From a virus (Duplodnaviria; Heunggongvirae; Uroviricota; Caudoviricetes), in the IMG/VR virus record IMGVR_UViG_3300032116_012976: 64,000 bases of DNA; one strand, given 5' to 3'. The notes under the pieces were generated by a model, which was not told the DNA's origin, searched no databases, and saw only the letters and a list, made by a program, of their open reading frames with translations. This document shows positions 37,201 to 51,551 of the stretch, piece after piece. Both the position numbers and the translations under genes were made by a program. Position 1 is the stretch's first letter. The number at the start of each line of letters is the position of its first letter.

Positions 37201-37223
37201 CTTTCAAAAATATTTATTGATAG

Positions 37224-37300: not shown

Positions 37301-37306
37301 ATTTGC

Positions 37307-37341
37307 AAAAAAAAAAACAGTAGGACTGGCCTACTGTTTTT
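37307..37341 (-). terminator. rho-independent terminator (bidirectional shape)
   Basis: acagtagg-actgg-cctactgt hairpin flanked by A11 and T5. On the minus strand it is followed by a long T-run. Confidence 0.8.
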
Positions 37342-37371
37342 ATAACTTGTGTCAGACAATCTGATCATGCG

Positions 37372-37671: not shown

Positions 37672-37690
37672 AATAATCTCCTTTTTGTAT

Positions 37691-38464: not shown

Positions 38465-38502
38465 ACAGTGTATTTAAAAGTCTGTGCAAGCTACATTAAA
38501 TT

Positions 38503-38579
38503 TGGTGCCCCAGAGGAGACTCGAACTCCTAAAATTTGGCTTCTAAGACCAACACGTATACCAATTCCGTCACCGGGGC
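38503..38579 (-). tRNA. tRNA with Leu anticodon TAG but class-I architecture, 77 nt
   Basis: GCCCCGG TG ACGG AATTGGTAT ACGT G TTGGT CTTAGAA GCCAA ATTTT AGGAG TTCGAGT CTCCT CTGGGGC A CCA. Confidence 0.7.
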
Positions 38580-38590
38580 TTAAATACATC

Positions 38591-38794
38591 ATGCAAACCA
38601 AACAAGACTCCATCAAAAAAATAGAGCGTTTGCTTGCAATGGAAACATTGGGCAAAACGTTTGTGACCAAACAACAACAGTTGGCCTACGAGCGCGGATA
38701 TCTAACAGGCTTGCTGGCTGCTATGGCCTACAACGACAATTCAGTCGAGCATGTGGTGAATCAACGCATCAAACATCTTACACCTAAAATCTAA
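38591..38794 (+). CDS. possible 67-aa ORF on the opposite strand within the tRNA array
   Basis: MQTKQDSIKKIERLLAMETLGK... Internal Met of ORF 38333..38794, whose upstream part overlaps a tRNA. No obvious RBS. Confidence 0.3.
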   Translation: MQTKQDSIKKIERLLAMETLGKTFVTKQQQLAYERGYLTGLLAAMAYNDNSVEHVVNQRIKHLTPKI

Positions 38795-38795
38795 C

Positions 38796-38871
<76 letters not shown>

Positions 38872-38876
38872 ATGAA

Positions 38877-38951
38877 TGGTGGGTGATGAGAGGATCGAAC
38901 TCCCGACAAACTGCGTGTAAGGCAGCGACTCTACCGCTGAGCTAATCACCC
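38877..38951 (-). tRNA. tRNA-Val(TAC)
   Basis: Acceptor gggtgat/atcaccc, anticodon loop CTTACAC, CCA encoded. Confidence 0.8.
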
Positions 38952-38956
38952 GTATA

Positions 38957-39047
38957 TGGTGGAAGTGGTGAGATTCGAACTCACGGACCCCTTTCGGAGC
39001 CGGCAGTTTTCAAGACTGCTGCAATCAACCAACTCTGCCACACTTCC
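38957..39047 (-). tRNA. tRNA-Ser(TGA), class II
   Basis: 91 nt, acceptor ggaagtg/cacttcc, anticodon loop CTTGAAA, long variable arm, CCA encoded. Confidence 0.8.
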
Positions 39048-39241
39048 TAAAAAATTAAAAAAGATACTGCTTTGCGTTTAAAGGTACTGAACATCCTTTC
39101 GGGTAGCTCACATCCTTCCTGGCACATGGTTCGACTGTGACTAGCAGTCTGGAACTTAATCCCAGCGGCACCTGGATAACGTTAAGGTCCCTAGCAGTTG
39201 GGCCCATAGTCAATGAGTTTTTCACACATCTTTTCTAAACT
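39048..39241 (-). other. unassigned 194-nt spacer in the tRNA array (possible small RNA)
   Basis: No ORF. Contains the direct repeat ggtactgaacatcc / ggtagctcacatcc and a duplicated ctagcagt. The minus strand ends in a T-rich run before tRNA-Ser. Confidence 0.25.
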
Positions 39242-39317
39242 TGGAGTAGGTGACAGGACTCGAACCTGCATTATACGGATTTGCAATCCGGCGCCTAGCC
39301 ATTCGGCACACACCTAC
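39242..39317 (-). tRNA. tRNA-Cys(GCA)
   Basis: Anticodon loop TTGCAAA, discriminator U73 as expected for Cys, CCA encoded. Confidence 0.8.
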
Positions 39318-39323
39318 ATCTAT

Positions 39324-39400
39324 TGGTCGGAGTACGAGGGTTCGAACCTCGGACCTCCTGGTCCCAAACCAGGCGCACTACCAGGCTGTGCTATACTCCG
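39324..39400 (-). tRNA. tRNA-Pro(TGG)
   Basis: Acceptor cggagta/tactccg, anticodon loop TTTGGGA, CCA encoded. Confidence 0.8.
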
Positions 39401-39406
39401 TGTATT

Positions 39407-39625
39407 TTATTTTACTTTGGGTTCTTGACTTTTGTCAAGTTCATGGGGTTCAGCAAATCTTGTGCCGTGGCCCAGATTCCAACTGTCTGCTGTGAAAATT
39501 TTTACAGGCTTCCAGTAACGACTTATGATGTTGTTGACAGCAACAGCCGCCGCCACAATCACTACAAATCCTATTGCTGTCAAAATACTACCAGCTAAGA
39601 ATACAGCCGCTTGATCCATGTCCAT
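39407..39625 (-). CDS. small membrane protein (72 aa) inside the tRNA array
   Basis: One clear hydrophobic helix AAVFLAGSILTAIGFVVIVAAAVAV. Confidence 0.5.
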   Translation of the reverse strand: MDMDQAAVFLAGSILTAIGFVVIVAAAVAVNNIISRYWKPVKIFTADSWNLGHGTRFAEPHELDKSQEPKVK

Positions 39626-39638
39626 TGTTTGTTCCTTG

Positions 39639-39712
39639 TGGAGCAGGGTAGGGGAATCGAACCCCTCGCTTTAGCTTGGAAGGCTAAGGTATTACCACTA
39701 TACGAACCCTGC
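39639..39712 (-). tRNA. tRNA-Gly(TCC)
   Basis: Acceptor gcagggt/accctgc, anticodon loop CTTCCAA, CCA encoded. Confidence 0.8.
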
Positions 39713-39760
39713 GTTAAAATACTTATTATACAACACTCAGACACTGTTGTAAAGATCATT

Positions 39761-39835
39761 TGGTTGCCATGGACAGTTTCGAAATGTCGACCTATCGCTT
39801 ATCAAGCGATTGCTCTTCCTCTGAGCTACACGGCA
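39761..39835 (-). tRNA. tRNA-Ile(GAT)
   Basis: Anticodon stem atcgc/gcgat, loop TTGATAA, CCA encoded. Confidence 0.75.
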
Positions 39836-39841
39836 AAAACT

Positions 39842-39915
39842 TGGCACGGGTACTAGGGCTCGAACCTAGAATGACAGAGTCAAAGTCTGTAGTGTTACCA
39901 TTACACTATACCCGA
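39842..39915 (-). tRNA. tRNA-Gln(TTG)
   Basis: Anticodon loop CTTTGAC, unpaired U1-U72 and G73 (Gln-like identity features), CCA encoded. Confidence 0.75.
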
Positions 39916-39927
39916 ACAAAAACTATT

Positions 39928-40002
39928 TGGTGGATGTAAGTAGAGTCGAACTACCACTTGACTCCGTATGAAGGAGGCGCACTACCATTATGCTATACAT
40001 CC
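39928..40002 (-). tRNA. tRNA-Met or Ile2 (CAT)
   Basis: GGATGTA...CCTCC TTCATAC GGAGT... Full cloverleaf. Met versus lysidine-Ile cannot be decided by eye. Confidence 0.7.
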
Positions 40003-40006
40003 ATGT

Positions 40007-40098
40007 TGGTACCCCCACCGGGAGTCGAACCCAGATGAACCAATTATCTGTTGCTTACGGGATATAAATCCGCCGTTTTACCATTAAACTATAGGGGC
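40007..40098 (-). tRNA. 92-nt tRNA with a 22-nt variable region; best-fit anticodon TAT (identity undetermined)
   Basis: GCCCCTA TA GTTT AATGGTA AAAC G GCGGA TTTATAT CCCGT AAGCAACAGATAATTGGTTCAT CTGGG TTCGACT CCCGG TGGGGGT A CCA. The A31-C39 pair is a mismatch. Confidence 0.55.
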
Positions 40099-40103
40099 AT
40101 GTC

Positions 40104-40178
40104 TGGGGTGTCGTATGAGAATCGAACTCATGACAGCGGAATCACAACCCGCGGTTTTGCCACTAAACTAACGTCACC
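40104..40178 (-). tRNA. tRNA-His(GTG)
   Basis: Anticodon loop TTGTGAT, C73 and an encoded G-1 (His hallmarks), CCA encoded. Confidence 0.8.
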
Positions 40179-40267
40179 ATATAGGAACACACTCAGGCGT
40201 AGTAGTTCGTTAGCCCACTAAGATACACGGCTACCACCCGTGTCATTAGTTGAATGTGTTTTTATAT
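40179..40267 (-). ncRNA. clamp-stem element filling the His-Lys tRNA spacer (89 nt)
   Basis: Arms atataggaacacactc (40179..40194) and gaatgtgtttttatat (40252..40267) pair around a ~57-nt insert with an internal hairpin acacgg/ccgtgt. Confidence 0.5.
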
Positions 40268-40341
40268 GGTAGGGGCGCCGGGATTCGAACCCGAAATTGG
40301 CAGATTAAAAGTCTGCTGTGATACCGTTTCACCACACCCCC
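40267..40341 (-). tRNA. tRNA-Lys(TTT)
   Basis: Anticodon stem gcaga/tctgc, loop CTTTTAA, CCA encoded. Confidence 0.8.
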
Positions 40342-40402
40342 GGTATCTTGTCACTCTTGTCACTATTCATGACAGACTCTCCTTTTTAAAATAAGTATTT
40401 GA

Positions 40403-41527
40403 ATGAACAAATATTGTCCAAAACCATTTGTTAGTATTCATATGTATACTGATAAAGATCTCAATCCAACTGTTAGGCCTTGTTGCAATTACAAACCTAT
40501 CAAGCAGTACGCAACGATTAATGATTATTTGCAATCATCTGAACTAGCGTCTCTTCAGCAACATTTGCTTACAAAAGAATCATTGCCAGATGGATGCAAG
40601 GCATGCAAAGTAGACGAAGATAATAACTTGCCTAGTATCCGAAACAAGTATATTAAAGTGTTTGAGCATGAAACCAAAACTAAAATTGTTGACTTGGAAA
40701 TTTTCCCTGGCAACGCATGTAATCTCAGTTGCTTGTCGTGCAATCCTTCTCATAGTACCAAATCAGGTCAGGAATATGCCAAACTTGGATGGATTAAACA
40801 ATCAATAGTGATCAATCACGAAGATCATGCACTTGAAGTTATTAAACAGTTGCCAGACCTTAAATCAATAGGTTTTATTGGCGGCGAATTTTTTGTAACC
40901 AAACACAATATTGAATTGCTCGATGCGGTTATTGAAAAAAATCTTAAAACACGAATTATTACCAATGCCACTCAACTAACCAAAAAACATCTTGAGCGGT
41001 TACAAAAAATATCTGACCTTGATGTGATGGTTAGTGTAGACGGTACTGGGCCAACATTTGAATTTTTACGCTATCCGGCACAATGGTCAGTTGTGCAATC
41101 AAACATTGTTGCACTACAACAGGCATTGCCCGGAGCAAAGATACATTTGTCGGCAGTGTTGCAATTTTTAAATTTGCAAAATATCATTGAACTGTTTGAA
41201 TACGCCAATGTCCGTCGACTGCCATTTAATGTGATCCCTTTATCTTATCCTGTTTGGCTACAGTCAGAAGTGCTTACCACTCTCGAACGTCAGCAGTTGA
41301 TTGCAGTTATACAAAAACAACTAACAGTTGCAAAACTTACCAAAACACAAAAACAGTTAATGACTGATACATGTAGTATGCTAGAAACAATACAGCACTC
41401 ACCTGCTCAACGAGAACAGTTTGTGTCTCGAACAAGCCAGCTGATTCGACTGCGCAACATCACACAACACACAATCAACTCAGTGTTTGGTGTGCTAGAA
41501 AATTTAGCGCAAGAAGTTATACAATAG
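40403..41527 (+). CDS. radical SAM enzyme (type B paralog) embedded in the tRNA array
   Basis: YCPKPFVSI...RPCC, CNLSCLSCN, IGGEFFV. Confidence 0.8.
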   Translation: MNKYCPKPFVSIHMYTDKDLNPTVRPCCNYKPIKQYATINDYLQSSELASLQQHLLTKESLPDGCKACKVDEDNNLPSIRNKYIKVFEHETKTKIVDLEIFPGNACNLSCLSCNPSHSTKSGQEYAKLGWIKQSIVINHEDHALEVIKQLPDLKSIGFIGGEFFVTKHNIELLDAVIEKNLKTRIITNATQLTKKHLERLQKISDLDVMVSVDGTGPTFEFLRYPAQWSVVQSNIVALQQALPGAKIHLSAVLQFLNLQNIIELFEYANVRRLPFNVIPLSYPVWLQSEVLTTLERQQLIAVIQKQLTVAKLTKTQKQLMTDTCSMLETIQHSPAQREQFVSRTSQLIRLRNITQHTINSVFGVLENLAQEVIQ

Positions 41528-41567
41528 CCAGGGACCTAACTCGTCAAGGGAGAGTATGGCTATGTGT

Positions 41568-41645
41568 TGGTACCACCTGAGAGATTCGAACTCCCCGCCC
41601 CTGCGTTCGTAGCACAGTGCTCTAATCCAAATGAGCTAAGGTGGT
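41568..41645 (-). tRNA. tRNA-Arg(ACG)
   Basis: Acceptor accacct/aggtggt, anticodon loop CTACGAA, CCA encoded. Confidence 0.75.
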
Positions 41646-41653
41646 GTATTGAA

Positions 41654-41853
41654 TTTGAGAGTAGTAGCATCACTGTTATTGCTACCATTGACCCGTGTAA
41701 TAAAGCCGGCCGGGAGGGTGATACGTCACTTGGAATACTTAACACACAGATTGATTACTTAGTTGTGTACGGAATCACGCCGCCCGTGCTTTACACTAGG
41801 TTGACCTTCGAAGAATCTTCCTAGCGTGTCTTTCTCTTGCTGACACTCTCAAA
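41654..41853 (-). ncRNA. 200-nt clamped spacer element between tRNA-Arg(ACG) and tRNA-Thr(TGT)
   Basis: Arms tttgagagt (41654..41662) and actctcaaa (41845..41853) pair. No ORF. Internal hairpins include gtagca/tgctac and ctagg/cctag. Confidence 0.4.
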
Positions 41854-41856
41854 ACT

Positions 41857-41930
41857 TGGTGCCCCACGACAGAATCGAACTGCCATCACAGGATTACAAA
41901 ACCAGTGTACTACCATTGTACTAGTAGGGC
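41857..41930 (-). tRNA. tRNA-Thr(TGT)
   Basis: GCCCTAC TA GTAC AATGGTA GTAC A CTGGT TTTGTAA TCCTG... Two U-U mismatches in the anticodon stem. CCA encoded. Confidence 0.65.
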
Positions 41931-41936
41931 GAATTG

Positions 41937-42026
41937 TGGTGGAAGACTAGGGAGTCGAACCCTATGACCCTATTACTAGAATCTACAGATTAGCAATCTG
42001 CTGCATTACCGTCCTGCCCGTCTTCC
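41937..42026 (-). tRNA. tRNA-Ser(GCT), class II
   Basis: 90 nt, acceptor ggaagac/gtcttcc, anticodon loop TTGCTAA, CCA encoded. Confidence 0.8.
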
Positions 42027-42031
42027 TGACT

Positions 42032-42107
42032 TGGCTCCCCAGCGTGGGATCGAACCACGGACACCTTGATTAACAGTCAAGTGCAACTACCGCTGTGCTA
42101 CTAGGGA
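42032..42107 (-). tRNA. tRNA-Asn(GTT)
   Basis: Anticodon stem cttga/tcaag, loop CTGTTAA, G73, CCA encoded. Confidence 0.8.
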
Positions 42108-42147
42108 ATAATCTACTTAGTAGGCACTCGAGCCTACTACAAAAATA

Positions 42148-42240
42148 TGGTGGAGCAACTTGGAGTCGAACCAAGAATGTTTACCACGAGGGGACGGATT
42201 TACAGTCCGCCGATGCACACGCCATAGCATCAATTGCTCC
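42148..42240 (-). tRNA. tRNA-Tyr(GTA), class II
   Basis: 93 nt, acceptor ggagcaa/ttgctcc, D stem GATG/CATC, anticodon loop CTGTAAA, 18-nt variable region, CCA encoded. Confidence 0.75.
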
Positions 42241-42245
42241 ATATT

Positions 42246-42320
42246 TGGTGGACCGGCGGGGGATCGAACCCCGACTAAAGGCTTGCAAAGCCCCTGTGCT
42301 CCCATTATCACTACCAGCCC
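42246..42320 (-). tRNA. tRNA-Ala(TGC)
   Basis: Anticodon loop TTTGCAA. The acceptor stem carries the G3:U70 Ala identity pair. CCA encoded. Confidence 0.8.
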
Positions 42321-42326
42321 AAATTT

Positions 42327-42400
42327 TGGCATCCCGGGAGGGACTCGAACCCCCACGAACGGTTTTGGAGACCGTCATGCTGCCATTACACCACCGAGAC
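42327..42400 (-). tRNA. tRNA-Trp(CCA)
   Basis: Anticodon stem acggt/accgt, loop CTCCAAA, G73, CCA encoded. Confidence 0.8.
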
Positions 42401-42408
42401 ATAATTTT

Positions 42409-42431
42409 AACACACTCTTGCGAATGTGTGT
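42409..42431 (-). ncRNA. GCAA-capped hairpin, minimal member of the clamp-stem family, 8 nt 5' of tRNA-Trp
   Basis: Minus strand acacattc-GCAA-gagtgtgt: 8 bp with one G:U. The same position is a C:A mismatch on the plus strand. Confidence 0.6.
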
Positions 42432-42432
42432 A

Positions 42433-42482
42433 TTAAAACATTCTAAACTACTTAGGCTGCCTGTTTGTAAAGAATGTTTTAA
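42433..42482 (-). ncRNA. 12-bp perfect clamp hairpin with 26-nt loop
   Basis: ttaaaacattct (42433..42444) pairs with agaatgttttaa (42471..42482). Confidence 0.5.
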
Positions 42483-42582
42483 TACGCTCGGATTTTTTTA
42501 TGTACAAGAACATAAGCCATCCCCGAGGCCGCCCATTTGTAGTTTAGAGTGATACAGGCTCGCGTTGCCGTTGCACTAAATG

Positions 42583-42610
42583 AAAAAACCCAGGGTTTTT
42601 ACGCCTGGGT
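42583..42610 (-). terminator. rho-independent terminator inside the ORF-free block
   Basis: acccagg...cctgggt hairpin followed, on the minus strand, by TTTTTT. Confidence 0.65.
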
Positions 42611-42818
42611 CCTTGGGTAAGATACGGTTGTATACTACTTAGGACCCTCTGCCTCCTGGAATGCTATTCATGCGACCATAGGCGTGTGACCAAACTGGTG
42701 TCTGGGCAAACTTGGGTAGCAGTGAACAATATTGTGTTTTCATCATAAGTCCTATTGTACAGTATTTACCTTTTGAGGTCAACCACTGTGTTAAAGTTAT
42801 TTAGCCTTTCGGCTGAAT

Positions 42819-42893
42819 TGGTTGCGGGGGAAGGAATCGAACCTCCGTCTCCCAGGTTATGAGCCTGGTGGTCTACCGCTGACGTACCCCGCG
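42819..42893 (-). tRNA. initiator tRNA-fMet(CAT)
   Basis: C1-A72 mismatch at the acceptor end (bacterial initiator hallmark), anticodon loop CTCATAA with a G-C-rich stem base, CCA encoded. Confidence 0.75.
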
Positions 42894-42904
42894 ATTGAAT
42901 TATT

Positions 42905-42986
42905 TATATAGAAACACACTCTATGCTTGGGGAACAATTCATTGAATTGAGCAACCACCAACGGGTACGGAGTGCGTTTGTATATA
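42905..42986 (-). ncRNA. clamp-stem element 11 nt 5' of tRNA-fMet (82 nt)
   Basis: Arms tatatagaaacacactc (42905..42921) and gagtgcgtttgtatata (42970..42986), 15 of 17 positions paired. Confidence 0.5.
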
Positions 42987-42993
42987 AAGTGGC

Positions 42994-44010
42994 GGACTGA
43001 GAATACATCCTAACCCAGTAACACCTCGGACATTATTACAAACCTTGCGAGTCTGCTTTCTTCCGATTTCCACTGCAACCATATTGCTATGTATCACAGT
43101 CTGTTACCAGTATCGCCGTTTTTAAAGACAGGCAGTAGTCTTGTCATCACATGCTACTCTACACCATCTATCCCGTTGACCTTTAGAGCCATTCACTGTC
43201 GCTAAACAGTTACGAAACTTCCAGTATAAACAGATTTCACCTTGCGAGTTACGTCTGACTGTATTGCCTTGCGGCTACAGCATTAGATACTTTTCACACA
43301 TGACCGAGTCAGTCTTTGCTTTTATGTTAGATAGTGGTTTTGAAGCCACAGCCTATTCCTTAACAGGGAATTGCTCTACGATGAGCTATATCAACCTACT
43401 GCGATGTGCTGACTCAGTTGCTTCATACTCTTTTGGAATACAAAATACAACACACCACGTTCCTTTTGTCTTGCGAACTACTCAGACGTCTTTTGCGATC
43501 AGTGTCGGGTCTCGGCTTTCGCGTACCTCCACCAACCACTCAAACTGCATACGAGCCCTTGGGTGCAACCCCTCGGACCGATACGCTACCCTTTCTCATA
43601 CCAATTAACTGGGCTGGTTTTGTATAGAAGTCAGCACCACCTGTTACTTTTCTGCAACTCCGGTTACCCTTGCGGGCCGGTAAGTTACAGCTCTTTCCTA
43701 TACTCCCAGCGTCATTGTTACAACCACCGGTCTTATCAGTGATCGGATCCTCACGGACCTGAGCAGGCTTGTTTACATGAACCATTGCTGGCGGACTTAT
43801 GTAGGCATACATCCTTTGGCTGGGTCACCCCAGTTATTCTTCGTACAGCTGGGCGAACCATACTGCACAGGACAATAAACTGCCCTATGTATCTATTGTA
43901 AGACAAACGTCTTTTGTTGTCAAACAGTTTTGGATAAATTTGTTGTTTATCTATCCAAAATAGTCTGTAACAGTTTTCTGCAGTCGTGTTACAGTGGGCA
44001 AATAAGTACC
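42994..44010 (-). ncRNA. candidate large structured ncRNA (~1 kb), class unknown (GOLLD/ROOL-like context)
   Basis: No credible ORF in an otherwise gene-dense window. Five CGCAAG (GCAA tetraloop) and two GTGA-capped hairpins on the minus strand, plus many local stems. Flanked by tRNAs. Confidence 0.4.
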
Positions 44011-44014
44011 CCAC

Positions 44015-44986
44015 ATGATCACTGAAATCTTAACCTATCACCACAGTCTCGACTGGAACATTGAACAATTCGTTGATAGCACATGTCTAGCAAACATTGT
44101 TCAGCCACACTGGCCAATGGTAACTTCTTCCAAAGGAGGATTGATACCAACAAATAAACCCAGCCGAGACTTTTTTGAGCTCAATAAAAAACGAGGACGT
44201 CCTACTGAACTTAGGAACAGTACCATTGACGCCTTGGTCAGTCTTGTGGCAACAAAATTGCATCTCAACGGATTTGTTACGAATGTGGTAGCAGAATGCA
44301 GTGGAAGCATGCATGCCTTGTACACTGCATCCATGGTGAGCTTGCAACACCAATTACCAGTGATTGTTTTTTGTGCTGATAATTTAGTTGATGACGAACT
44401 TCACATGTGGCGATTTGCCAGTATGGGTGCATTGGATCAATCCTCAGGAAGAGCATTTGACTCAACCAGTACTGGATTTCGAATGGGTAGAGGCATGGCT
44501 GCAATGTTGATAAAACATCCAAGTGTAAAATTCAACATGAGTGCATTTGCCACAATCAGCAATTATATCTTTCGTACCAACCCCACACTCATAGCCAATC
44601 CAGGTGATGCGCACCAATTGGCCAGAGATATTTCTGGCATCAATTTTGACACCATTGATTTTTGGAATGCACATGCAACAGGCACTCCAGTGGGAGATCA
44701 ATTTGAGTACAATGTTTTTAATTCTTTAGTTCACAAAGACATACCTATTGTCAGCTACAAAAGCCGCATAGGGCACTGTATCTCAGCCAGCGGCGCCATT
44801 GAAATGTGCATGAGTTTTGACGATTACCGTGCAAAAACCCTAAGACCCAATGTGTTAGCTGGTGATCTCATAGTCAAAGATTCAAGGATCATCGTAGATG
44901 CTGTGCCGTTTCCGGGCAAACGCATACTCAAGGCCAATTTTGGATTTGGCGGCAAAAACAGTTTTTGCCAAATTGACATTGAATAG
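44015..44986 (+). CDS. beta-ketoacyl-ACP synthase I/II-like (short, 323 aa)
   Basis: Cys-His-His triad context: AECSGSMHALY, NAHATGTPVGD, KSRIGHCISASGAIE. C-terminal FGFGGKNS. N-terminal region is shorter than FabB/FabF. No obvious RBS. Confidence 0.75.
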   Translation: MITEILTYHHSLDWNIEQFVDSTCLANIVQPHWPMVTSSKGGLIPTNKPSRDFFELNKKRGRPTELRNSTIDALVSLVATKLHLNGFVTNVVAECSGSMHALYTASMVSLQHQLPVIVFCADNLVDDELHMWRFASMGALDQSSGRAFDSTSTGFRMGRGMAAMLIKHPSVKFNMSAFATISNYIFRTNPTLIANPGDAHQLARDISGINFDTIDFWNAHATGTPVGDQFEYNVFNSLVHKDIPIVSYKSRIGHCISASGAIEMCMSFDDYRAKTLRPNVLAGDLIVKDSRIIVDAVPFPGKRILKANFGFGGKNSFCQIDIE

Positions 44987-44990
44987 ATTC

Positions 44991-45140
44991 TATAGTCAAG
45001 CACCGAGAGATGCTCAATTTATGCGTCCTCCGCTAAGAGTGCAATAGCCGATAGCAGTTATATTAGGATCCGTTCCCGGCCGGTTGGACCCGAATAGCGT
45101 AAGCGTCCTTACACGATACCTTTATCGGTGCTTGACTATA
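44991..45140. ncRNA. 150-nt element closed by a perfect 16-bp clamp, directly after the KAS stop codon
   Basis: tatagtcaagcaccga (44991..45006) pairs with tcggtgcttgactata (45125..45140). The interior has gc-GTAA-gc, ccggccgg and gcg/cgc stems. Confidence 0.45.
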
Positions 45141-45173
45141 AAAACTAAAAGTTCGGATTTGAAAATCAAATCC
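45141..45173 (-). terminator. possible terminator of the upstream minus-strand RNA
   Basis: ggatttga-aaa-tcaaatcc hairpin (45155..45173) followed, on the minus strand, by T-rich gaacTTTTagTTTTTat. Confidence 0.45.
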
Positions 45174-45590
45174 TCCCACTGCTAACTACTGCTTCCCAAT
45201 TTATCGTCCATCGGCACCCGTGGTAGGGCTTGCGATGCTCATCGGCCCTGAGTTCTGGCTCAGGTGATCCTTGGGATAGGACTGCTGGGCCTTGTCCTGC
45301 CCAGCATCAGGAAAATTAGTTGCTCTGCATCCCCCGGCGGTAATTGTAGTGCATCATCTCTTGGGTTGCCCCGCAATTCTCACACACCTTCCACCCGCTT
45401 CCCGACAGGGACCGCTATCGTGTTGCTAACGGCCTTTCGGTAAGAAGACTACCACCCTTGAGAGTCACCTCACTTCTTATCCTGCGGGTCACAGTATCCG
45501 CTAACCAAGCGGAACGTCGGGGAGAAGCCACGGTTGCAGGACCTAGTGCTCTTGCGAGGAAGTGTCCAGGCGATGTGGCTTCAAACTTGA
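45174..45590 (-). ncRNA. candidate structured ncRNA (~420 nt), class unknown
   Basis: ORF-free. Hairpins cctgag/ctcagg, tgctggg/cccagca, agggc/gccct, tccgc/gcgga. Two more CGCAAG on the minus strand (plus CTTGCG at 45229 and 45551). Confidence 0.35.
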
Positions 45591-45679
45591 GGCATCATGT
45601 GGGATTCGAACCCACGCAAGAAAACCTTGATGATCATTCAAGGTTGAAGCAAACCACACTCCGTTACATCCTATGACGC
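45591..45679 (-). ncRNA. tRNA-like element A (89 nt; canonical acceptor and T arm, non-canonical core, no CCA)
   Basis: GCGTCAT...GTGGG TTCGAAT CCCAC ATGATGC C. The core is an 8-bp hairpin with loop ATGATCA. No D-arm could be folded. Confidence 0.4.
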
Positions 45680-45687
45680 CATAAACT

Positions 45688-45778
45688 TGGTGGACAACAA
45701 TGGGAATCTAACCCACTTCTTCCTCGTATGCTATTACGAAGTTTCATACCAGCCTCAGGTAATTGACACATCATGTCC
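45688..45778 (-). ncRNA. tRNA-like element B (91 nt; degenerate)
   Basis: T-arm GTGGG TTAGATT CCCAT, 5-bp acceptor, CCA encoded. No canonical anticodon arm (7-bp stem CTTCGTA/TACGAGG with a 6-nt loop). Confidence 0.35.
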
Positions 45779-45785
45779 ATAAACT

Positions 45786-45860
45786 TGGCGGTCCCAGGGG
45801 GTAACGATCCCCCTCCTCAGCAGTGACAGTGCTGTGTGCGTCCATGAACACCTTGAGACC
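45786..45860 (-). tRNA. tRNA-Asp(GTC)
   Basis: GGTCTCA AG GTGT TCATGGAC GCAC A CAGCA CTGTCAC TGCTG AGGA GGGGG ATCGTTA CCCCC TGGGACC G CCA. Confidence 0.75.
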
Positions 45861-46063
45861 AAATTAGGATAAGCTACTGGGTTCCACGCCAGCCCTTAAT
45901 TGAGCAGTTACTCTGTCCATCTCATTTATTCAAAGTCTGTGTGCAGTGAGATTCTGCCTATCAGAGTCTGTAAGGGTAGTCTCCATCCTTACGCTTACGG
46001 TCTTCTGCCACCGGATCTCTATCGCTAATCAAACGCTACTTTAACGAAAGTAGTAACGGGATT

Positions 46064-46138
46064 TGGTAGAGCGTAGGGGAATCGAACCCCTCTTACAGGC
46101 GTGAAAGGCTTGTGTCCTAACCGATAGACGAACGCTCC
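46064..46138 (-). tRNA. tRNA-Glu(TTC)
   Basis: G1:U72, T-arm agggg/cccct, anticodon loop CTTTCAC, CCA encoded. Confidence 0.8.
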
Positions 46139-46147
46139 ATAGTTCAC

Positions 46148-46376
46148 TATATGAAAACACATTAGGGAAGTTCTTGACACGCATCACCAACTTGCATCAA
46201 GACCTCATTACAGGCCCAGTAGTTCCGCCGCCTTCCTGGAGTTTGGTGTAGCCTTATCCCTCACGCTCGATGGTGTCTCGCGCTACTCTTAGGCCCTCCT
46301 GCTTCATGGGTATCCGGCTCGAATCAGCCTTTGTTCACCCCTAACGGACTAGGTAACCCTAATGTGTTTACATATA
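46148..46376 (-). ncRNA. clamp-stem element 9 nt 5' of tRNA-Glu (229 nt)
   Basis: Arms tatatgaaaacacattaggg (46148..46167) and ccctaatgtgtttacatata (46357..46376), 19 of 20 paired, enclosing ~190 nt without an ORF. Confidence 0.5.
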
Positions 46377-46473
46377 GTGCCCAGAACTTAATCTGGGGCA
46401 CTATACAAAATTAAATTTTTAACGAACTTCAAAGTAGTTTCGATCAACTGCCTTTGTTTTCTAACTAGTCTCT

Positions 46474-46502
46474 AGTATAGCATCTCCTGCTTTACTGGTC
46501 AA
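46474..46502 (-). promoter_or_regulatory. sigma70-type promoter TTGACC-N17-TATACT (TGn) reading into the tRNA/ncRNA array
   Basis: Minus strand: ttgaccagtaaagcaggagatgcTATACT. Confidence 0.6.
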
Positions 46503-46571
46503 CTTGTTTTGTAAATGCCCCGCCTTGTTGCAGGGTCTTTACAAACTTCGCTGTTTTTCTAACTTGTGTCT

Positions 46572-46600
46572 AGTATAGCACCAATCCAATTATTGGTCTA
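46572..46600 (-). promoter_or_regulatory. tandem second copy of the promoter (TAGACC-N17-TATACT)
   Basis: Minus strand: tagaccaataattggattggtgcTATACT. About 98 nt upstream of the first copy, with shared flank ttttctaact.gt.tctagtatagca. Confidence 0.45.
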
Positions 46601-46607
46601 CTGCCAT

Positions 46608-46637
46608 AAAAAAACCCGCCTACTTGGCGGGTTTTTT
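46608..46637 (-). terminator. rho-independent terminator after the porin gene (bidirectional shape)
   Basis: acccgcc-tactt-ggcgggt flanked by an A-run and a T-run. Confidence 0.85.
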
Positions 46638-46656
46638 GGTTTGTACTACTTCTGTT

Positions 46657-47547
46657 TTAGAACTGTACGACCAACCCGCCTGCTACTTGTTTGACATCAG
46701 TGGCTGCTGAGGTTCCCTCAACTGTACGATACAAAACTTGTGCATAGGTCTTTTTGCTGAAAGCATACTCAGCACCTACGTTGTAACTCTTGATGCCATT
46801 TTCAATGCGACCATAGCTGGCCTTCACTGTGACTGGTCCACCAAGTTTGTGTGCCACGCCGACCAACTGAGCACGGTTGGTGTTGGCAGCAACGCCTTTG
46901 TTGTCGCTTGCGCTGGCAAACACAGTGGTTGCACCAAATTTAGCACGAGCAGCCAACACGTCACTGGTTTCTGCGCCAGCTTCGTAACGAGCATAAGTCA
47001 ACACAGCAGGTCCAACTGCGGCAATCACGGATGCGGCATAAGGATCAGCGGCAGTGCCAACAGCACCAGTGCTACGATCAAAGTTAGCAGAGACATTGCC
47101 AAAGTTCACAGAAGTGAAAGCGGCATTGCTCAAACGCAAACCACGCAGGTTATGCACGTCGGCAGCTGAGCTACCAATCAATGTGCCAAATGGATCATTG
47201 TCGCTGATGGCCAAGAAGTGAGTGTGAACATTGCGACCAAGATCAACGCTACCCATTTTGTGAGCAATACCCACGGTGCTTTGGCGATCGCCAAGTCTAG
47301 TGTCAGTACCAGTGTCTGGGCTGTTGGCTTGGATGCCGGTCTCGTATGTGGCACGAGCTGTTAATCCGCCACCTAAGTTTTCAGTAGCACGAATGCCAAA
47401 GTGACTCAAGTCATTGGCCATGCCTTGCACGGTGGAAGCACCAGTTTTGGTGTTGTCAAGGTAAGTGCCAACACGACCATAGATACCAACTTGTGCGCTT
47501 GCAACACCAGCAACTGCCAGGGTCAACGCAATTAGAACTTTCTTCAT
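46657..47547 (-). CDS. outer-membrane porin (Gram-negative trimeric porin family)
   Basis: Signal peptide MKKVLIALTLAVAGVASAQV, alternating beta-strand pattern, C-terminal ...GGLVVQF with terminal Phe. RBS aaggaaa. Confidence 0.8.
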   Translation of the reverse strand: MKKVLIALTLAVAGVASAQVGIYGRVGTYLDNTKTGASTVQGMANDLSHFGIRATENLGGGLTARATYETGIQANSPDTGTDTRLGDRQSTVGIAHKMGSVDLGRNVHTHFLAISDNDPFGTLIGSSAADVHNLRGLRLSNAAFTSVNFGNVSANFDRSTGAVGTAADPYAASVIAAVGPAVLTYARYEAGAETSDVLAARAKFGATTVFASASDNKGVAANTNRAQLVGVAHKLGGPVTVKASYGRIENGIKSYNVGAEYAFSKKTYAQVLYRTVEGTSAATDVKQVAGGLVVQF

Positions 47548-47595
47548 AAGTAATTTTTCCTTGTTAATGAAATGATCAAATGTCGATCATAGAGT

Positions 47596-47625
47596 ATTAT
47601 ATAGCACAAACACTGAGAATGTCAA
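47596..47625 (-). promoter_or_regulatory. sigma70-type promoter TTGACA-N18-TATAAT for the porin gene
   Basis: Minus strand: ttgacattctcagtgtttgtgctaTATAAT. Confidence 0.55.
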
Positions 47626-47651
47626 AGAAAATGGCTACTTTCGCAGCCATT
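47622..47651 (-). terminator. terminator at the end of the tmRNA coding piece
   Basis: aatggct-gcgaaagt-agccatt hairpin followed, on the minus strand, by ttttcttt. Confidence 0.65.
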
Positions 47652-47813
47652 TTGGTGGTTTCTGTTACGAGGTATTTCCTACCCTAGACGACCTTAAGCG
47701 GCCATCAAGAATTTTTCATCATTTGCAGATAAAAGTTTTGCTTGATTTACGGTCATCGCCTACCGTGCTGTCCACTCTGTTACTCTTTGCCCTGTCGAAT
47801 CTAGGTCAGGCCC
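47630..47813 (-). ncRNA. ssrA: tmRNA coding piece (two-piece / permuted ssrA)
   Basis: Starts GGGCCTGACCTAGATTCGAC (compare the standard GGGGCUGAUUCUGGAUUCGAC). Contains the tag frame. The 3' boundary is approximate. Confidence 0.8.
47694..47726 (-). other. ssrA: tmRNA tag reading frame ANDEKFLMAA*
   Basis: GCA AAT GAT GAA AAA TTC TTG ATG GCC GCT TAA. The ANDE...AA pattern is typical of proteobacterial tags. Confidence 0.8.
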
Positions 47814-48028
47814 ATCATAAAGAAACTTAATCTACGCTTAATGTTGTTAACAACAAGCATAATATTGGAAAAACAATTAATAAAAATTTTGCTAAATTTT
47901 CCATATTACCATAACTCACAGTTTTTTATTTTCTCTTCGTCCAATGTGGTATCACGTGTAAAATAAAATACACCAAACACTAACCAAAATAACAAAAATA
48001 AAACATAACCTATCATTAAACTTCCTTA

Positions 48029-48093
48029 TGGTGGACCTGGGGGGATTCGCACCCCCGTCCAGAACACTTTTCTCTCGGCTTCATACAGCAATA
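48029..48093 (-). ncRNA. ssrA: tmRNA acceptor piece (T-arm + 3' acceptor strand + ACCA)
   Basis: ...GGAC GGGGG TGCGAAT CCCCC CAGGTCC A CCA. Pairs with GGGCCTG of the coding piece, giving G3:U70. The 5' boundary is inferred from the promoter. Confidence 0.75.
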
Positions 48094-48099
48094 ACTCGC

Positions 48100-48128
48100 A
48101 GTATATATTTATTCTTTGGGCTTGTCAA
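48100..48128 (-). promoter_or_regulatory. sigma70-type promoter TTGACA-N17-TATACT for the tmRNA precursor
   Basis: Minus strand: ttgacaagcccaaagaataaataTATACT. Confidence 0.6.
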
Positions 48129-48278
48129 CTGCTTTGGAGATGATGTCATACACTTGTGCGTATGCATCAGTAATTTTGTCTAGTTGTTGTTCCGACACCA
48201 AGTCTGTGTCCTCCAGACTGACCAAGTCTCGGGCTAGATTTTCTTGTAGTTTTTTTATGGGATTGAGCACATACCTAT

Positions 48279-48812
48279 TTATTCATCCCCGCTATCTACT
48301 GGGATCCAGCCCAACTTAAAAAAGTCTTCCTGGATTTCTTCTGTGACATGTCCTTCGGGTACATATCTTTTAACACCGTCAGCATCACCATTGCCCAGTC
48401 CATCGCCTATGCCCGAACAGTACCAATCAATATAGTCACCTTGTTCACGCATGTCGGCAACAATACCCCCGGCATAGCGCCACGAACAACTGTAGGTCTC
48501 TCCCTTTAGCAAAGGCCATACTTCGTTGCGTTGCCAGTCTTGATTGCACAAGGCTGCGTAGATGTTTTGAGCGTAGGTATCGCTGGCCTTGGCTTTGTCG
48601 CAAACCCACTTGGTGCTACGCAAATCATATTCAAGATTGTTTTCTCGCCACCGTTCGTCGGCTTCGCGTTGAGCCTGATGTTCGTTGATCATGCGTTCAA
48701 GATCTAAAGCTCGTTGAACATCTTCGTCAGTGGCAGGATCTCCTCCTTCCGCAATGACATCTTCAATTCTGCATTGACTGTGAAAGGTTCCGCGAGTAGG
48801 ACTTTTGTTCAT
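48279..48812 (-). CDS. hypothetical protein
   Basis: Start moved to MNKSPTRG, because the longer ORF-track version (to 48890) runs through tRNA-Leu(TAA). Confidence 0.55.
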   Translation of the reverse strand: MNKSPTRGTFHSQCRIEDVIAEGGDPATDEDVQRALDLERMINEHQAQREADERWRENNLEYDLRSTKWVCDKAKASDTYAQNIYAALCNQDWQRNEVWPLLKGETYSCSWRYAGGIVADMREQGDYIDWYCSGIGDGLGNGDADGVKRYVPEGHVTEEIQEDFFKLGWIPVDSGDE

Positions 48813-48818
48813 AATGTT

Positions 48819-48904
48819 TGGTACCAGAGACGGGACTCGAACCCGTATGCCCTTGCAAGCGGCAGATTTTAAGTCTGCTGTGTATACCATTCCACCACTC
48901 TGGC
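48819..48904 (-). tRNA. tRNA-Leu(TAA), canonical class II
   Basis: 86 nt: GCCAGAG TG GTGG AATGGTATA...GCAGA CTTAAAA TCTGC + 15-nt variable arm + ACGGG TTCGAGT CCCGT CTCTGGT A CCA. Confidence 0.8.
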
Positions 48905-48922
48905 TTTGCGTTATTTAATACA

Positions 48923-48997
48923 TGGTCCGGCGTAGAGGAATCGAACCTCTATAATGACTTTAGAAGAATCATGTCCTATCCGTTGAACGAACGCCAG
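48923..48997 (-). tRNA. tRNA-Arg(TCT)
   Basis: CTGGCGT TC GTTC AACGGATA GGAC A TGATT CTTCTAA AGTCA TTAT AGAGG TTCGATT CCTCT ACGCCGG A CCA. Confidence 0.8.
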
Positions 48998-49002
48998 ATG
49001 TT

Positions 49003-49077
49003 TGGTGGGCCAACTTGGAATTGAACCAAGACTCGACCGATTATGAGTCGGTTGCTTTACCATTAAGCTATTGGCCC
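49003..49077 (-). tRNA. tRNA-Met or Ile2 (CAT)
   Basis: GGGCCAA TA GCTT AATGGTA AAGC A ACCGA CTCATAA TCGGT CGAGT CTTGG TTCAATT CCAAG TTGGCCC A CCA. Confidence 0.75.
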
Positions 49078-49510: not shown

Positions 49511-49539
49511 ATTATACAAAAATGCTAAGTGTTTGTCAA
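49511..49539 (-). promoter_or_regulatory. sigma70-type promoter TTGACA-N17-TATAAT
   Basis: Minus strand: ttgacaaacacttagcatttttgTATAAT. Overlaps the 3' end of the desaturase ORF. Confidence 0.55.
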
Positions 49540-50300
49540 CGGTCTTTGTCAGTTCTTACCAATTGAATTAAGCGGTATCCAGGATCAAATTCCCACCATT
49601 TTTTGCCAAACTGTGGATCTGCGGCAGCGGCGTGATGATTGTTGTGCCAGCCCTCTCCACCAGTCAAATATCCTACCAGCAGGTTATTTGAACTTTGATC
49701 ACGTGTGTCAAAATTTCTATATCCTGATGGACTGTGAGTGAGAGAGTTGGTCAGTGAACTGGCATGTTGCAACAATAGTGACGGAACCAAATAAGCATAC
49801 ACTACTGCATAAGGATCTATCATGTAAACTGCCACCCCGACCAAGATAGTGTACAACCAATGATTGTAGTACATGTGCATGTGAAATTTGGATTTCACAA
49901 TCTCTGGAGCATAACTTAATTTTGGAGTAGCAGGTGTGAGTCTAAATTGCACGGCTAGATAACCGTATACCGCAGGTGAGTGCGGATCATCTTTTGTGTC
50001 AGAGTGTCTATGATGCGCTCGATGTATTGCTACCCAATACAACATTGGTAAAGTTGTGCCAGGAATAGCAATCAATGTTCCTAGATATTCAAACCATTTT
50101 GGTGCTTGAAAAGAACGATGGGTGATCAGCCGATGAACTGTTACAGTTCCGACTACCATCTTGATATAGTAGACCAACAGACATATTGCCCACTGCCATG
50201 CTTCACTGTTGAAGATAAAGTAGACCAGGATCACATGTAGACAGGCACTGTATGCAATCATTTCGTTGTGCGAAGGCACAAACCAGTTTTTCTTTTTCAT
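49536..50300 (-). CDS. membrane fatty-acid desaturase (third copy)
   Basis: HRLITHRSF, HRAHHRHSDTKDDPHSP, GEGWHNNHHAA. Confidence 0.85.
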   Translation of the reverse strand: MKKKNWFVPSHNEMIAYSACLHVILVYFIFNSEAWQWAICLLVYYIKMVVGTVTVHRLITHRSFQAPKWFEYLGTLIAIPGTTLPMLYWVAIHRAHHRHSDTKDDPHSPAVYGYLAVQFRLTPATPKLSYAPEIVKSKFHMHMYYNHWLYTILVGVAVYMIDPYAVVYAYLVPSLLLQHASSLTNSLTHSPSGYRNFDTRDQSSNNLLVGYLTGGEGWHNNHHAAAADPQFGKKWWEFDPGYRLIQLVRTDKDR

Positions 50301-50308
50301 GCAGATAC

Positions 50309-50467
50309 TTATGCATCTACTTGCAGTAGGTCAGCCTCTTGATCCATTTCCATTTCGGTAATCAGCAGGTCAGCAAATTGCTGACAGAAGATAGCAAACC
50401 AAAGTTGGTCCATCGCTTCTTCGGGTGCGCCAGCGGCCCGCACCAGGCGTTCAAGTTCAGTATTCAT
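50309..50467 (-). CDS. 52-aa acidic protein (below ORF-track cutoff)
   Basis: MNTELERLVRAAGAPEEAMDQLWFAIFCQQFADLLITEMEMDQEADLLQVDA. ATGA overlap with ORF 50464. Confidence 0.45.
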   Translation of the reverse strand: MNTELERLVRAAGAPEEAMDQLWFAIFCQQFADLLITEMEMDQEADLLQVDA

Positions 50468-50760
50468 AGCCTGGAATCATAAGTGAAGGCAGCAAGATAT
50501 CGCATGCTGGCACGGCTGGGAATGTGCTGATTACAGAACCGTTGGTATGCCGCACGCCAACGCTTTTGGACAGGTGCTGGCGCATGGCAAGCAAGATAAT
50601 GCAAGTGGCCAAATCTGCGCCCAATGCTGATGTGATTGGGCTTCCAGCCTGCAGGATACCATTTGTCGCGAGTTTGCCAATTGTAGTTTACCCAGACACC
50701 CATTCGGCGTTCTTGCATGATATACTTTTTAGATATATCTTGTGGTCTAAATCGGTTCAT
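50464..50760 (-). CDS. hypothetical protein
   Basis: 98-aa basic ORF, ATGA-coupled. Confidence 0.5.
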   Translation of the reverse strand: MNRFRPQDISKKYIMQERRMGVWVNYNWQTRDKWYPAGWKPNHISIGRRFGHLHYLACHAPAPVQKRWRAAYQRFCNQHIPSRASMRYLAAFTYDSRL

Positions 50761-51551
50761 TTTTGCATCATCAGCGCATTGAAGTTTGCAGGAACAACAA
50801 TTGTTTGCACACGACCGTTCTTGATACCTTCTGAGATATTCATCATAGCCTGCGCTTGCATGTAAGCAATTGACTGAGCACCTTGATTACTCAATGCTTG
50901 CATACGTTCTGCTTCCATCTTAGCAGTCTTAACTTCAACTTCTTTTTGTTTCAATTCATTCTTGGCACGAACCAACTCATTTGCACTCGCAACCACAGAA
51001 TCTGCAGGTACAATATTCCGAATCAACACTTGACCAACAACCAAACTACCATCAAGTTTTTCATCAGCCAAACTCTTTTGAATTTGTTCTTTAATTGCTT
51101 GTTCCATCACTTGGCGATTATCAGCCATGTCTAGTGCCTCGTACTTTCGGGCTTCTTTGTAGATGGCATTACGAGTGGTTTGAACCATATAGTTGTACAT
51201 CAAGTAGATGTCGCCGTTGTGCCGAGCATGGAATGCTTGACTCTTTTGGCTATACAACTCGGCTACCTGTGCTTGATTGATGTTATAGATAACCACTGCA
51301 TCAAAGTCTTTCATTGTTGAGTTATCTTTAGCAACAGGTGTCATGTCCTCCAGTTTGACATTAACGTCCTTGATTGGGAATGTAAGAACATCACCCCAAA
51401 AGGTTTGATTAAACGAGCCAGGCATTAATTCACCTTGCTGGACTTGTTTATCAAAGCCAACACGTACACCAACTTCACCTGTTTCGATACGAGTACAACC
51501 TGTTGCCAGCACAGCCGCGGCAAGAACGGAGAGAGTCAAAATACGTTTCAT
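50757..51551 (-). CDS. SPFH/band-7 (prohibitin-like) lipoprotein
   Basis: Lipobox LATGC after the signal peptide. SPFH-like GEVGVRVGFDKQV...DFDAVVIYNI... followed by a coiled-coil tail. Confidence 0.7.
   Translation of the reverse strand: MKRILTLSVLAAAVLATGCTRIETGEVGVRVGFDKQVQQGELMPGSFNQTFWGDVLTFPIKDVNVKLEDMTPVAKDNSTMKDFDAVVIYNINQAQVAELYSQKSQAFHARHNGDIYLMYNYMVQTTRNAIYKEARKYEALDMADNRQVMEQAIKEQIQKSLADEKLDGSLVVGQVLIRNIVPADSVVASANELVRAKNELKQKEVEVKTAKMEAERMQALSNQGAQSIAYMQAQAMMNISEGIKNGRVQTIVVPANFNALMMQK

Follow-up and report, generated by a model that had tools for sequence, protein, structure and literature searches.

The first porins known from phages were Lc, of the lambdoid phage PA-2, and NmpC, of the defective prophage qsr'/DLP12 of E. 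coli. They set the classical precedent for porins on phage genomes and for the idea of superinfection exclusion. Both are general-diffusion porins carried as phage accessory genes, of the enterobacterial OmpC/PhoE type (Porin_1), close to host genes, and their carriers are temperate lambdoid phages. This report concerns a porin gene on the DNA of a virus of the Caudoviricetes (IMG/VR record IMGVR_UViG_3300032116_012976), of which a stretch of 64,000 nucleotides (nt) was analysed; this whole stretch is referred to as the window. The product of the window gene is likewise a putative general-diffusion porin encoded as a phage accessory, but the family to which it belongs is not of the OmpC/PhoE type, has no close cellular counterpart and is carried by jumbo or T4-like phages of freshwater metagenomes rather than by temperate lambdoid ones. 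What appears to be new is a deep clade of porins found almost only in phages.

Outer-membrane channels have also been reported from large environmental phages. OprP is an auxiliary gene of freshwater amoC-phages (10.64898/2026.06.18.733297), OmpL adjoins glnK-amtB in viruses of marine oxygen-minimum zones (PMC8115048), and both were interpreted as aids to nutrient uptake. They are members of other porin families than the window porin, OprP being phosphate-selective, and both were reported to be highly similar to host genes and hence recent acquisitions, whereas the window family is deeply diverged within phages. The position of OmpL beside a transporter gene has a parallel in one relative of the window porin, which adjoins TctA (locus L054, see later in the text).

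The closest described proteins are cellular. Omp32, BpsOmp38 and PorB are trimeric general porins of betaproteobacteria, and the window protein has in common with them its Pfam family, 16 predicted strands, a latching-type loop L2, a helical loop L3, a signal peptide and a C-terminal aromatic residue. The C terminus of the family, with the consensus GVGLxHxF, is similar to the GVGLRHKF of PorB. The window family differs in being phage-encoded and in being shorter, with a mature protein of 278 amino acids (aa) in the window compared with ~308-343 aa for the PDB chains, and with most loops only 2-7 residues long. On balance we lean, if only slightly, towards the view that the gene encodes a functional general porin of the Omp32/PorB type, most likely serving as an Omp32-like nutrient channel during infection. 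The gene and the parts of its expression unit are as follows.

46657..47547, minus strand: porin coding sequence, with an ATG start and the stop codon at 46659-46657; precursor of 296 aa, mature protein of 278 aa
47494..47547, minus strand: signal-peptide codons, residues 1-18 (MKKVLIALTLAVAGVASA), with predicted cleavage after A-S-A and the mature protein starting QVGIYG
47137..47226, minus strand: codons of loop L3, residues 108-137 (HTHFLAISDNDPFGTLIGSSAADVHNLRGL), two short helices in the model and the predicted constriction loop
47625..47596, minus strand: sigma-70-type promoter, TTGACA at 47625-47620 and TATAAT at 47601-47596 with an 18-nt spacer, a 12/12 match
47589..47548, minus strand: predicted 5' leader of ~40 nt, the transcription start being placed from the position of the -10 box
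47562-47558, minus strand: ribosome-binding site AAGGA, 10 nt before the ATG
46637..46609, minus strand: intrinsic terminator 20 nt past the stop codon, AAAAAACCCGCC-loop-GGCGGGTTTTTT, a 12-bp stem with 6 GC pairs and a 5-nt loop

The 296-aa open reading frame (ORF) matches the Porin_4 profile (PF13609) at 90.2 bits against a cut-off of 27 (E 2.8e-25), with residues 7-278 lying on profile positions 4-307 of 310. A Porin_1 match is confined to residues 38-108 (29 bits), and the NCBIfam PhoE model gives 15.6 bits against a cut-off of 599, so that full-length similarity of the OmpC/PhoE type is absent; a PHROGs profile scan of the porin protein matched no family. The Sec-type signal peptide, read from the sequence, comprises an MKK n-region, a hydrophobic core and an A-S-A motif followed by Q, and its residues 2-14 form a lower-confidence helix in the structural model. 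The protein ends in ...GGLVVQF, with the terminal Phe (F296) invariant in 62 family representatives. The ratio of non-synonymous to synonymous substitution rates (dN/dS) is 0.11-0.18 in all pairs of the window porin with six homologous loci; the window porin is a maintained gene under purifying selection. By each feature examined, namely the profile match, the 16-strand model, the signal peptide and the terminal aromatic residue, the window protein is a member of Porin_4. The preliminary description of this DNA had called it a complete porin gene with a signal peptide and a C-terminal Phe, a call borne out by the family match and by the beta-barrel now predicted. Gene calls of 306 aa in the homologous loci L003-L006 were set aside, as they begin at an upstream TTG; from the conserved MKK start these proteins are 295-296 aa long.

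The AlphaFold2 model of the single chain, built on an alignment of 62 diverse family members, has a mean predicted local distance difference test score (pLDDT) of 93.9 and a predicted template-modelling score (pTM) of 0.87. DSSP divides the model into 17 strand segments, two of which (38-45 and 49-59) are one strand, strand 2, with a bulge at the conserved D46/S48; since the alignment with PorB joins these segments, the barrel is counted as having 16 strands. The modelled extracellular loops are of 2 (L1), 17 (L2), 30 (L3), 10 (L4), 2 (L5), 6 (L6), 4 (L7) and 7 aa (L8). L3 is the most conserved of them, with a mean entropy of 0.09 in 120 close homologues compared with 0.29 for the other loops. 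Strands have an entropy of 0.16 in the same homologues, which makes them mildly less variable than the surface loops apart from L3. Residues D118, F120, T122, G125, D130, N133 and R135 of L3 are invariant in a family alignment designated A3.

The top solved structures found by Foldseek were Omp32 of Delftia acidovorans (2fgq, 1e54), BpsOmp38 of Burkholderia pseudomallei and PorB of Neisseria, with E values of 3e-16 to 2e-14, template-modelling (TM) scores of ~0.75-0.79 and a probability of 1.00; for Omp32 the values are E 3e-16 and TM 0.79. Identity in these structural alignments is only 17-22%. The family profile matches PorB at E 2.5e-28 and Omp32 at 1.2e-21. Omp32-like porins are anion-selective, with an arginine cluster (R38, R75 and R133) at the constriction that E58 stabilises. 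Three residues of the Omp32 constriction, E58, R75 and R133, align with E69, R88 and R138 of the family, and all three are invariant. A further Omp32 residue, R38, aligns with family position 49, where the consensus is also Arg but the window protein and its close relatives have His. Among the best structural matches, 2fgq is a complex of Omp32 with malate. If the model is right, the window protein is a naturally loop-trimmed porin and should be useful for structural and biophysical study. Compactness was considered as a phage-specific ‘stealth’ adaptation and was ruled out by a 292-aa Porin_4 protein, P0226, which is 28% identical and stands in a cellular context; small size alone is therefore no viral trait.

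The preliminary description had credited the gene with a TTGACA-N18-TATAAT promoter, a good ribosome-binding site and a strong terminator. All three were found, as the 12/12 match, the AAGGA motif and the 12-bp hairpin with its T-run listed earlier. The hairpin is flanked by an A-run as well as a T-run and should therefore be readable as a terminator on both strands. Among 80 homologous loci, which form the census used throughout (77 for the promoter count), a hairpin with a T-run lies within 70 nt of the stop codon in 71, as against 4.7% of random 70-nt windows, and in 40 of 77 the 150 nt upstream contain a sigma-70-like promoter matching at 9/12 positions or more, as against 19% of random windows. 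The homologous promoter of L003 and L005 reads TTGACA-18-TATACT. In each of the eight loci inspected for it a ribosome-binding site of the AAGGA/AAAGGA type precedes the porin.

This layout recalls the phage morons, such as lom and bor of lambda, which also have their own promoter and terminator, stand among unrelated genes and occur on various backbones. Lambda Lom is an outer-membrane protein, as the product of the window porin is predicted to be. The window porin has moron architecture. Morons in the original sense belong to temperate phages, with expression in the prophage state. The window porin differs from them in being old and widely conserved in its phages rather than a sporadic insertion.

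An own promoter is not special to the porin, as the minus-strand region carries many consensus sigma-70 promoters. Fourteen sites in the window match at 11/12 positions or better, all on the minus strand between 25024 and 55240, where resampled sequence gives an expectation of 1.5 +/- 1.1; three sites are perfect 12/12 matches, the porin promoter among them. This excess suggests that a large block of the genome is apparently transcribed by unmodified host RNA polymerase.

The sequence and the model together suggest the following course of events. Host sigma-70 RNA polymerase would transcribe the porin as a monocistronic unit, the Sec pathway would export the precursor with cleavage after A-S-A, and the beta-barrel assembly machinery (BAM) of the host would recognise the C-terminal ...VVQF and insert the porin in the outer membrane of the infected Gram-negative cell. 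The product would be a 16-stranded barrel whose pore is narrowed by L3 and, by analogy with its cellular relatives, it presumably assembles as a trimer. It would let more small hydrophilic solutes, probably anions such as organic acids, diffuse through the outer membrane during infection, and these would then feed host transporters or, in some relatives, inner-membrane transporters encoded by the phage itself. Transcription from a host-type promoter, Sec export and BAM assembly into a 16-strand channel are well supported as predictions. If the channel works, these viruses use a porin of their own design to alter how permeable the outer membrane of the host is.

The family is widespread in jumbo and T4-like freshwater phages, is under purifying selection and has kept its stand-alone expression unit. 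A search of 5.8 billion proteins gave 820 homologues, the best 120 of which are 85-96% identical to the window porin and all from metagenomes. Among 1.84 billion representatives at 50% identity there are 38 clusters below E 1e-30, and some 60 full-length clusters (50% identity, 285-322 aa) score above ~80 bits, with relatives reaching down to ~30% identity; ordinary porins of 330-380 aa enter this search only near E 1e-10. Databases label members of the family only ‘predicted porin’ or ‘OmpC porin [uncultured Caudovirales phage]’, and full-text searching of the literature found no description of this porin family.

All 12 distinct neighbourhoods that were read (L001, L003-L006, L009, L012, L013 and L051-L054) are phage-like, with porins of 32-92% identity. 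Their genes include those for ribonucleotide reductase (RNR), PAAR, DNA ligase, ClpX, ribosomal protein S21, HSP20, ClpS, NAMPT and a MoxR/DUF2201 pair, together with homing endonucleases of the GIY-YIG and I-TevI types and, in some, T4 gp32 and gp59. A scan of IMG/VR with alignment A3 found family members, 42-88% identical, on 66 viral contigs, the longest of 525 kb. The same alignment gave a single full-length match in the 185,579 species-representative genomes of GTDB, on the contig L013 (NZ_JBBAKG010000031.1, 70 kb) of a metagenome-assembled genome (MAG) deposited as ‘MAG: Haliscomenobacter sp.’ (Bacteroidota). L013 was ruled out as a cellular carrier by its phage gene order: the order RNR large subunit, RNR small subunit, PAAR, porin, ligase is that of the phage contig L001, and L013 is most likely a mis-binned phage. 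The PAAR-porin-ligase slot is the same in L001 and L013 although their porins are only 40% identical. The remaining GTDB matches are partial, 24-39% identical, and nearly all are porins of named Burkholderiales. No relative was found by a GTDB scan with the single porin protein, and such genome scans rely on short peptide patterns and can miss relatives; tblastn matched the porin to none of 50,697 deposited phage genomes. The first clearly cellular relatives score ~59 bits and are 334-336 aa long (P0204, on a chromosome of 2.25 Mb, and P0205, ‘porin [Burkholderiales bacterium]’). In these searches, then, the porin family appears as a deep lineage found almost only in phage genomes.

Within these genomes the porin appears to move. 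The window shares with L001, L002, L007 and L008 the following block.

46627..47496, minus strand: shared block of 87-90% nucleotide identity, comprising the mature-protein codons and ~30 nt of 3' flank

By blastn the block ends just past the signal-peptide codons on one side and inside the terminator on the other, with no homology beyond either end. Phages of the L001 type have a different signal peptide and an unrelated backbone, and the synonymous divergence of the porin does not track backbone relatedness. The pattern indicates that the porin unit is exchanged between unrelated phage backbones. L003-L006 are colinear with the window over the tRNAs, the transfer-messenger RNA (tmRNA) and the porin and have ~2.9 kb of extra genes after the porin. 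This extra DNA (L003 10921-13870, L005 6319-9245) lies between the porin and the tRNA promoters and holds ORFs of 310, 227, 251 and 127 aa. A run of 25 nt at the porin stop codon and terminator (window 46633-46657) is repeated at both ends of the insert in L003 and L005, which suggests insertion or deletion via recombination at the terminator.

At least three neighbourhoods recur around the porin. In 27 of the 80 loci the porin is preceded on its own strand by a permuted tmRNA, which is within ~700 nt in at least 15 of them, and the pairing is kept at porin identities of 38-92% and on more than one phage backbone. The MoxR/DUF2201 pair lies 1-8 kb downstream of the porin in 35 of the 80; in the window the tRNA array intervenes. 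The RNR/PAAR/ligase context is found in ~13 of the 80 loci.

Transport genes are also found near the porin. Tct-type genes (TctC, TctA and an unannotated partner of 362-394 aa) occur within 10 kb of it in ~14 of the 80 loci. In L054 the order is TctC-ORF-TctA-porin; TctA scores 360 bits, and its stop codon and the start codon of the porin overlap (ATGA), with an AAGGAG site ahead of the porin. In L052 TctA and the porin are 1 kb apart, L003-L006 have two TctC genes upstream of the porin, and Tct genes are also near the porin in L062, L091 and L102. Components of ABC importers are near the porin in L009 and L013. The 362-394-aa family has no Pfam match and accompanies phage TctC/TctA in L003 (4311-6660, duplicated), L054 (5423-6511), L009, L051, L062, L091 and L098; it may be an undescribed component of a phage Tct-type transporter.

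The benefit to the phage, we infer, would be added uptake of small nutrients. Uptake is favoured by the conserved constriction, by the likeness to Omp32 with its bound malate, by the recurrent and once operonic link with Tct genes, and by the precedents of OprP and OmpL. If this is true, some genomes pair the porin with an inner-membrane transporter of their own, and the finding bears on how viruses shape the flow of carbon and nutrients in lakes. Several points weigh against a nutrient channel. The His at position 49 in the window subgroup makes anion selectivity uncertain. The Tct link is a minority pattern (~14 of 80 loci, a raw count), and no Tct homologue was found in the 64-kb window. 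Host cells, moreover, already hold many porins, and the marginal gain from another is not obvious.

A wider reading is possible but tentative. It sees in the family a virus-restricted channel lineage, long kept by several lineages of large freshwater phages and exchanged among them, usually linked to the tmRNA and sometimes operonic with TctC/TctA. Should this be true, the phages would hold a complete import route for organic acids over both membranes, core to a re-plumbing of nutrients in nutrient-poor lakes.

Among the alternatives, superinfection exclusion or receptor replacement survives best, but we think it unlikely. Here the phage porin would compete with or replace the receptor porin of the host, and its short loops would make the cell refractory to adsorption. 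The prophage porins nmpC and Lc are thought to block superinfection by repressing receptor porins such as OmpC, according to a passage in PMC5381585 that cites Highton 1985. Most of the extracellular loops of the model are indeed very short (L1 and L5 2 aa, L7 4, L6 6 and L8 7), and the surface loops other than L3 vary somewhat more than the strands (0.29 compared with 0.16). The envelope-related genes of the window, described later, would fit a phage that remodels the cell surface, and a consensus host-type promoter would permit early expression. Nothing found here, however, points to a porin as the receptor of this or any competing phage, and a new porin does not remove existing receptors within one infection cycle. 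Short loops are not specific to phages either, as the compact cellular P0226 demonstrates. The ORFs of the window that were scanned, a partial scan of 64 kb of the genome only, include no integrase, repressor or lysogeny genes. Exclusion also leaves unexplained the recurrent adjacency of Tct and ABC transport genes. Uptake and superinfection exclusion could both hold at once.

That the phage recently took the gene from a host and carries it as a neutral or transient passenger, with no conserved role, is very improbable. In favour of this reading, the gene is self-contained, it lies in an island of RNA genes that houses other accessory genes, and its overall GC content of 0.51 is above the window mean of 0.44. 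High GC as a mark of foreign origin was ruled out, as the GC content at third codon positions (GC3) is 0.44, close to the 0.42 +/- 0.07 of 45 window ORFs, and the surplus is found at codon position 2, where it comes from a composition rich in Ala, Gly, Thr and Ser. No cellular homologue above ~35% identity was found, the nearest cellular porins standing at ~59 bits and the GTDB scans yielding none. The family has diverged to ~30% identity inside phages with syntenic slots kept (PAAR-porin-ligase, at 86% and 40% porin identity), and the low dN/dS values do not suit a neutral passenger. A recent host acquisition had been raised in the preliminary description. The weak cellular matches, the near restriction to phages and the phage-typical GC3 all speak against it and indicate that the porin is not a recent host capture; this reading is largely refuted.

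We give as little credence to a late role, in which the porin would weaken the outer membrane to aid lysis and release, or would be shed on vesicles as a decoy, and would not be a nutrient channel. It has general plausibility in its favour, since an overproduced beta-barrel can stress the outer membrane. The constriction loop and the pore-lining residues are nevertheless strongly conserved, which argues for selection on a defined channel and not for membrane damage, and the promoter is of the host sigma-70 consensus, not obviously a late phage type. Among the contexts read, none has a holin, endolysin or spanin gene beside the porin, and the cell-wall hydrolase found 1.4 kb from the porin of L053 is a single case.

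The surrounding genes bear on the remaining alternative, that the contig is not viral. ORFs of the window encode a thymidylate synthase, a MazG-type pyrophosphatase, a polynucleotide kinase, a flap endonuclease, radical-SAM enzymes, a carbamoyltransferase and a MoxR-type ATPase with its DUF2201 partner. The best cultured matches of the MoxR ATPase and the flap endonuclease, which lie 34 kb apart, are in Pseudomonas jumbo phages of the PA5oct group (46-50% aa identity). The 50,697 phage genomes searched by tblastn gave no megablast match to 20 kb of the window either. As judged from these genes, the backbone of the window is that of a jumbo phage distantly related to PA5oct. A cellular or chimeric contig, with the porin as an ordinary bacterial gene beside a bacterial tRNA/tmRNA cluster, can practically be dismissed. 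In its favour, cells normally have porins, tRNAs and tmRNA, and no capsid, portal or terminase gene was found in the 64-kb window. Against it, 31 tRNA genes, a tmRNA and a GOLLD RNA are packed, all on the minus strand, in ~13 kb, the window carries phage-type genes, the homologous loci belong to viral contigs in IMG/VR that reach 525 kb, some contexts hold T4 gp32 and gp59, and alignment A3 found no true cellular copy in 185,579 species genomes. The PA5oct-type matches of two window genes, the homologues on viral contigs and the T4-like contexts agree with the original description of the porin as phage-encoded.

The host is probably betaproteobacterial, as suggested by the structural and sequence neighbours of the porin and by the near-exclusive presence of Burkholderiales among the cellular matches. 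The preliminary description had recognised a Burkholderiales-type style in the protein, and this impression agrees with the top structures (Omp32, BpsOmp38 and PorB), with the cellular matches of the genome scans and with the first named relative, ‘porin [Burkholderiales bacterium]’. Weaker leads to the host come from the TctC family, whose genes are greatly expanded in Burkholderiales, and from a match of L009 to the beta_tmRNA model that is weak (41.6 bits) and below the Rfam threshold. The tags of porin-linked tmRNAs are mostly ANDxxFALAA-like, which we take to resemble betaproteobacterial SsrA tags. The linkage of tmRNA and porin and the betaproteobacterial character of both genes are thus leads to uncultured hosts.

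The RNA genes and signals around the porin are as follows.

48128-48100, minus strand: tmRNA promoter (promoter scan)
48090..47694, minus strand: permuted (two-piece) tmRNA upstream of the porin (Rfam RF04321, 115 bits; ARAGORN), tag ANDEKFLMAA
47653-47628, minus strand: hairpin and T-run after the tmRNA, abutting the -35 box of the porin promoter
46600-46572 and 46502-46474, minus strand: two tandem promoter-like sites facing tRNA-Glu and tRNA-Asp
46138..46064, minus strand: tRNA-Glu (ARAGORN); tRNA-Asp is also downstream of the porin
48819..49077, minus strand: further tRNAs (ARAGORN)

The porin thus lies between the tmRNA and tRNA genes, as had been noted at the outset, and on the minus strand like them. 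The 31 tRNA genes, all on the minus strand, extend from 36479 to 49077 and cover nearly all amino acids. One of them, tRNA-Ile(TAT) at 40007-40098, is 92 nt, which is unusually long for a class I tRNA, and may contain an insertion or an intron. Inside the array, at 42994-43458 on the minus strand, lies the GOLLD RNA (Rfam RF02032, 204 bits, matched over the full-length model), with an embedded tRNA-like match at 43325-43395.

Genes for envelope and lipid functions are dense in the window (9547-11037, 19360-21382, 28844-31079, 44015-44986 and 49536-51551). They encode a carbamoyltransferase, a DegT aminotransferase with a sugar epimerase/dehydratase, an Asp/Asn hydroxylase-like protein, two fatty-acid desaturases, a hexapeptide acyltransferase, a ketoacyl synthase and an SPFH/Band 7 protein, and the PHROG of heptose kinase/adenylyltransferase (an HldE-like kinase) is matched elsewhere in the window. 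From this set the phage appears equipped to remodel the surface of its host.

Some features of the related loci deserve mention. In L009 a GIY-YIG homing-endonuclease-like ORF (7206-8330) ends where the permuted tmRNA (8009-8330) begins, and a stretch matching the start of the tmRNA region of the window lies 0.9 kb further upstream. A homing endonuclease splitting this tmRNA was considered and ruled out, as Rfam finds an intact permuted tmRNA directly after the ORF. The same locus has a tRNA with a CTA anticodon at 9014-9088 (ARAGORN), a possible amber suppressor. L001 carries a cluster of ClpX, ribosomal protein S21, HSP20 and ClpS at 17893-20468, and L012 a heme oxygenase together with a ferredoxin-dependent bilin reductase at 18625-19813.

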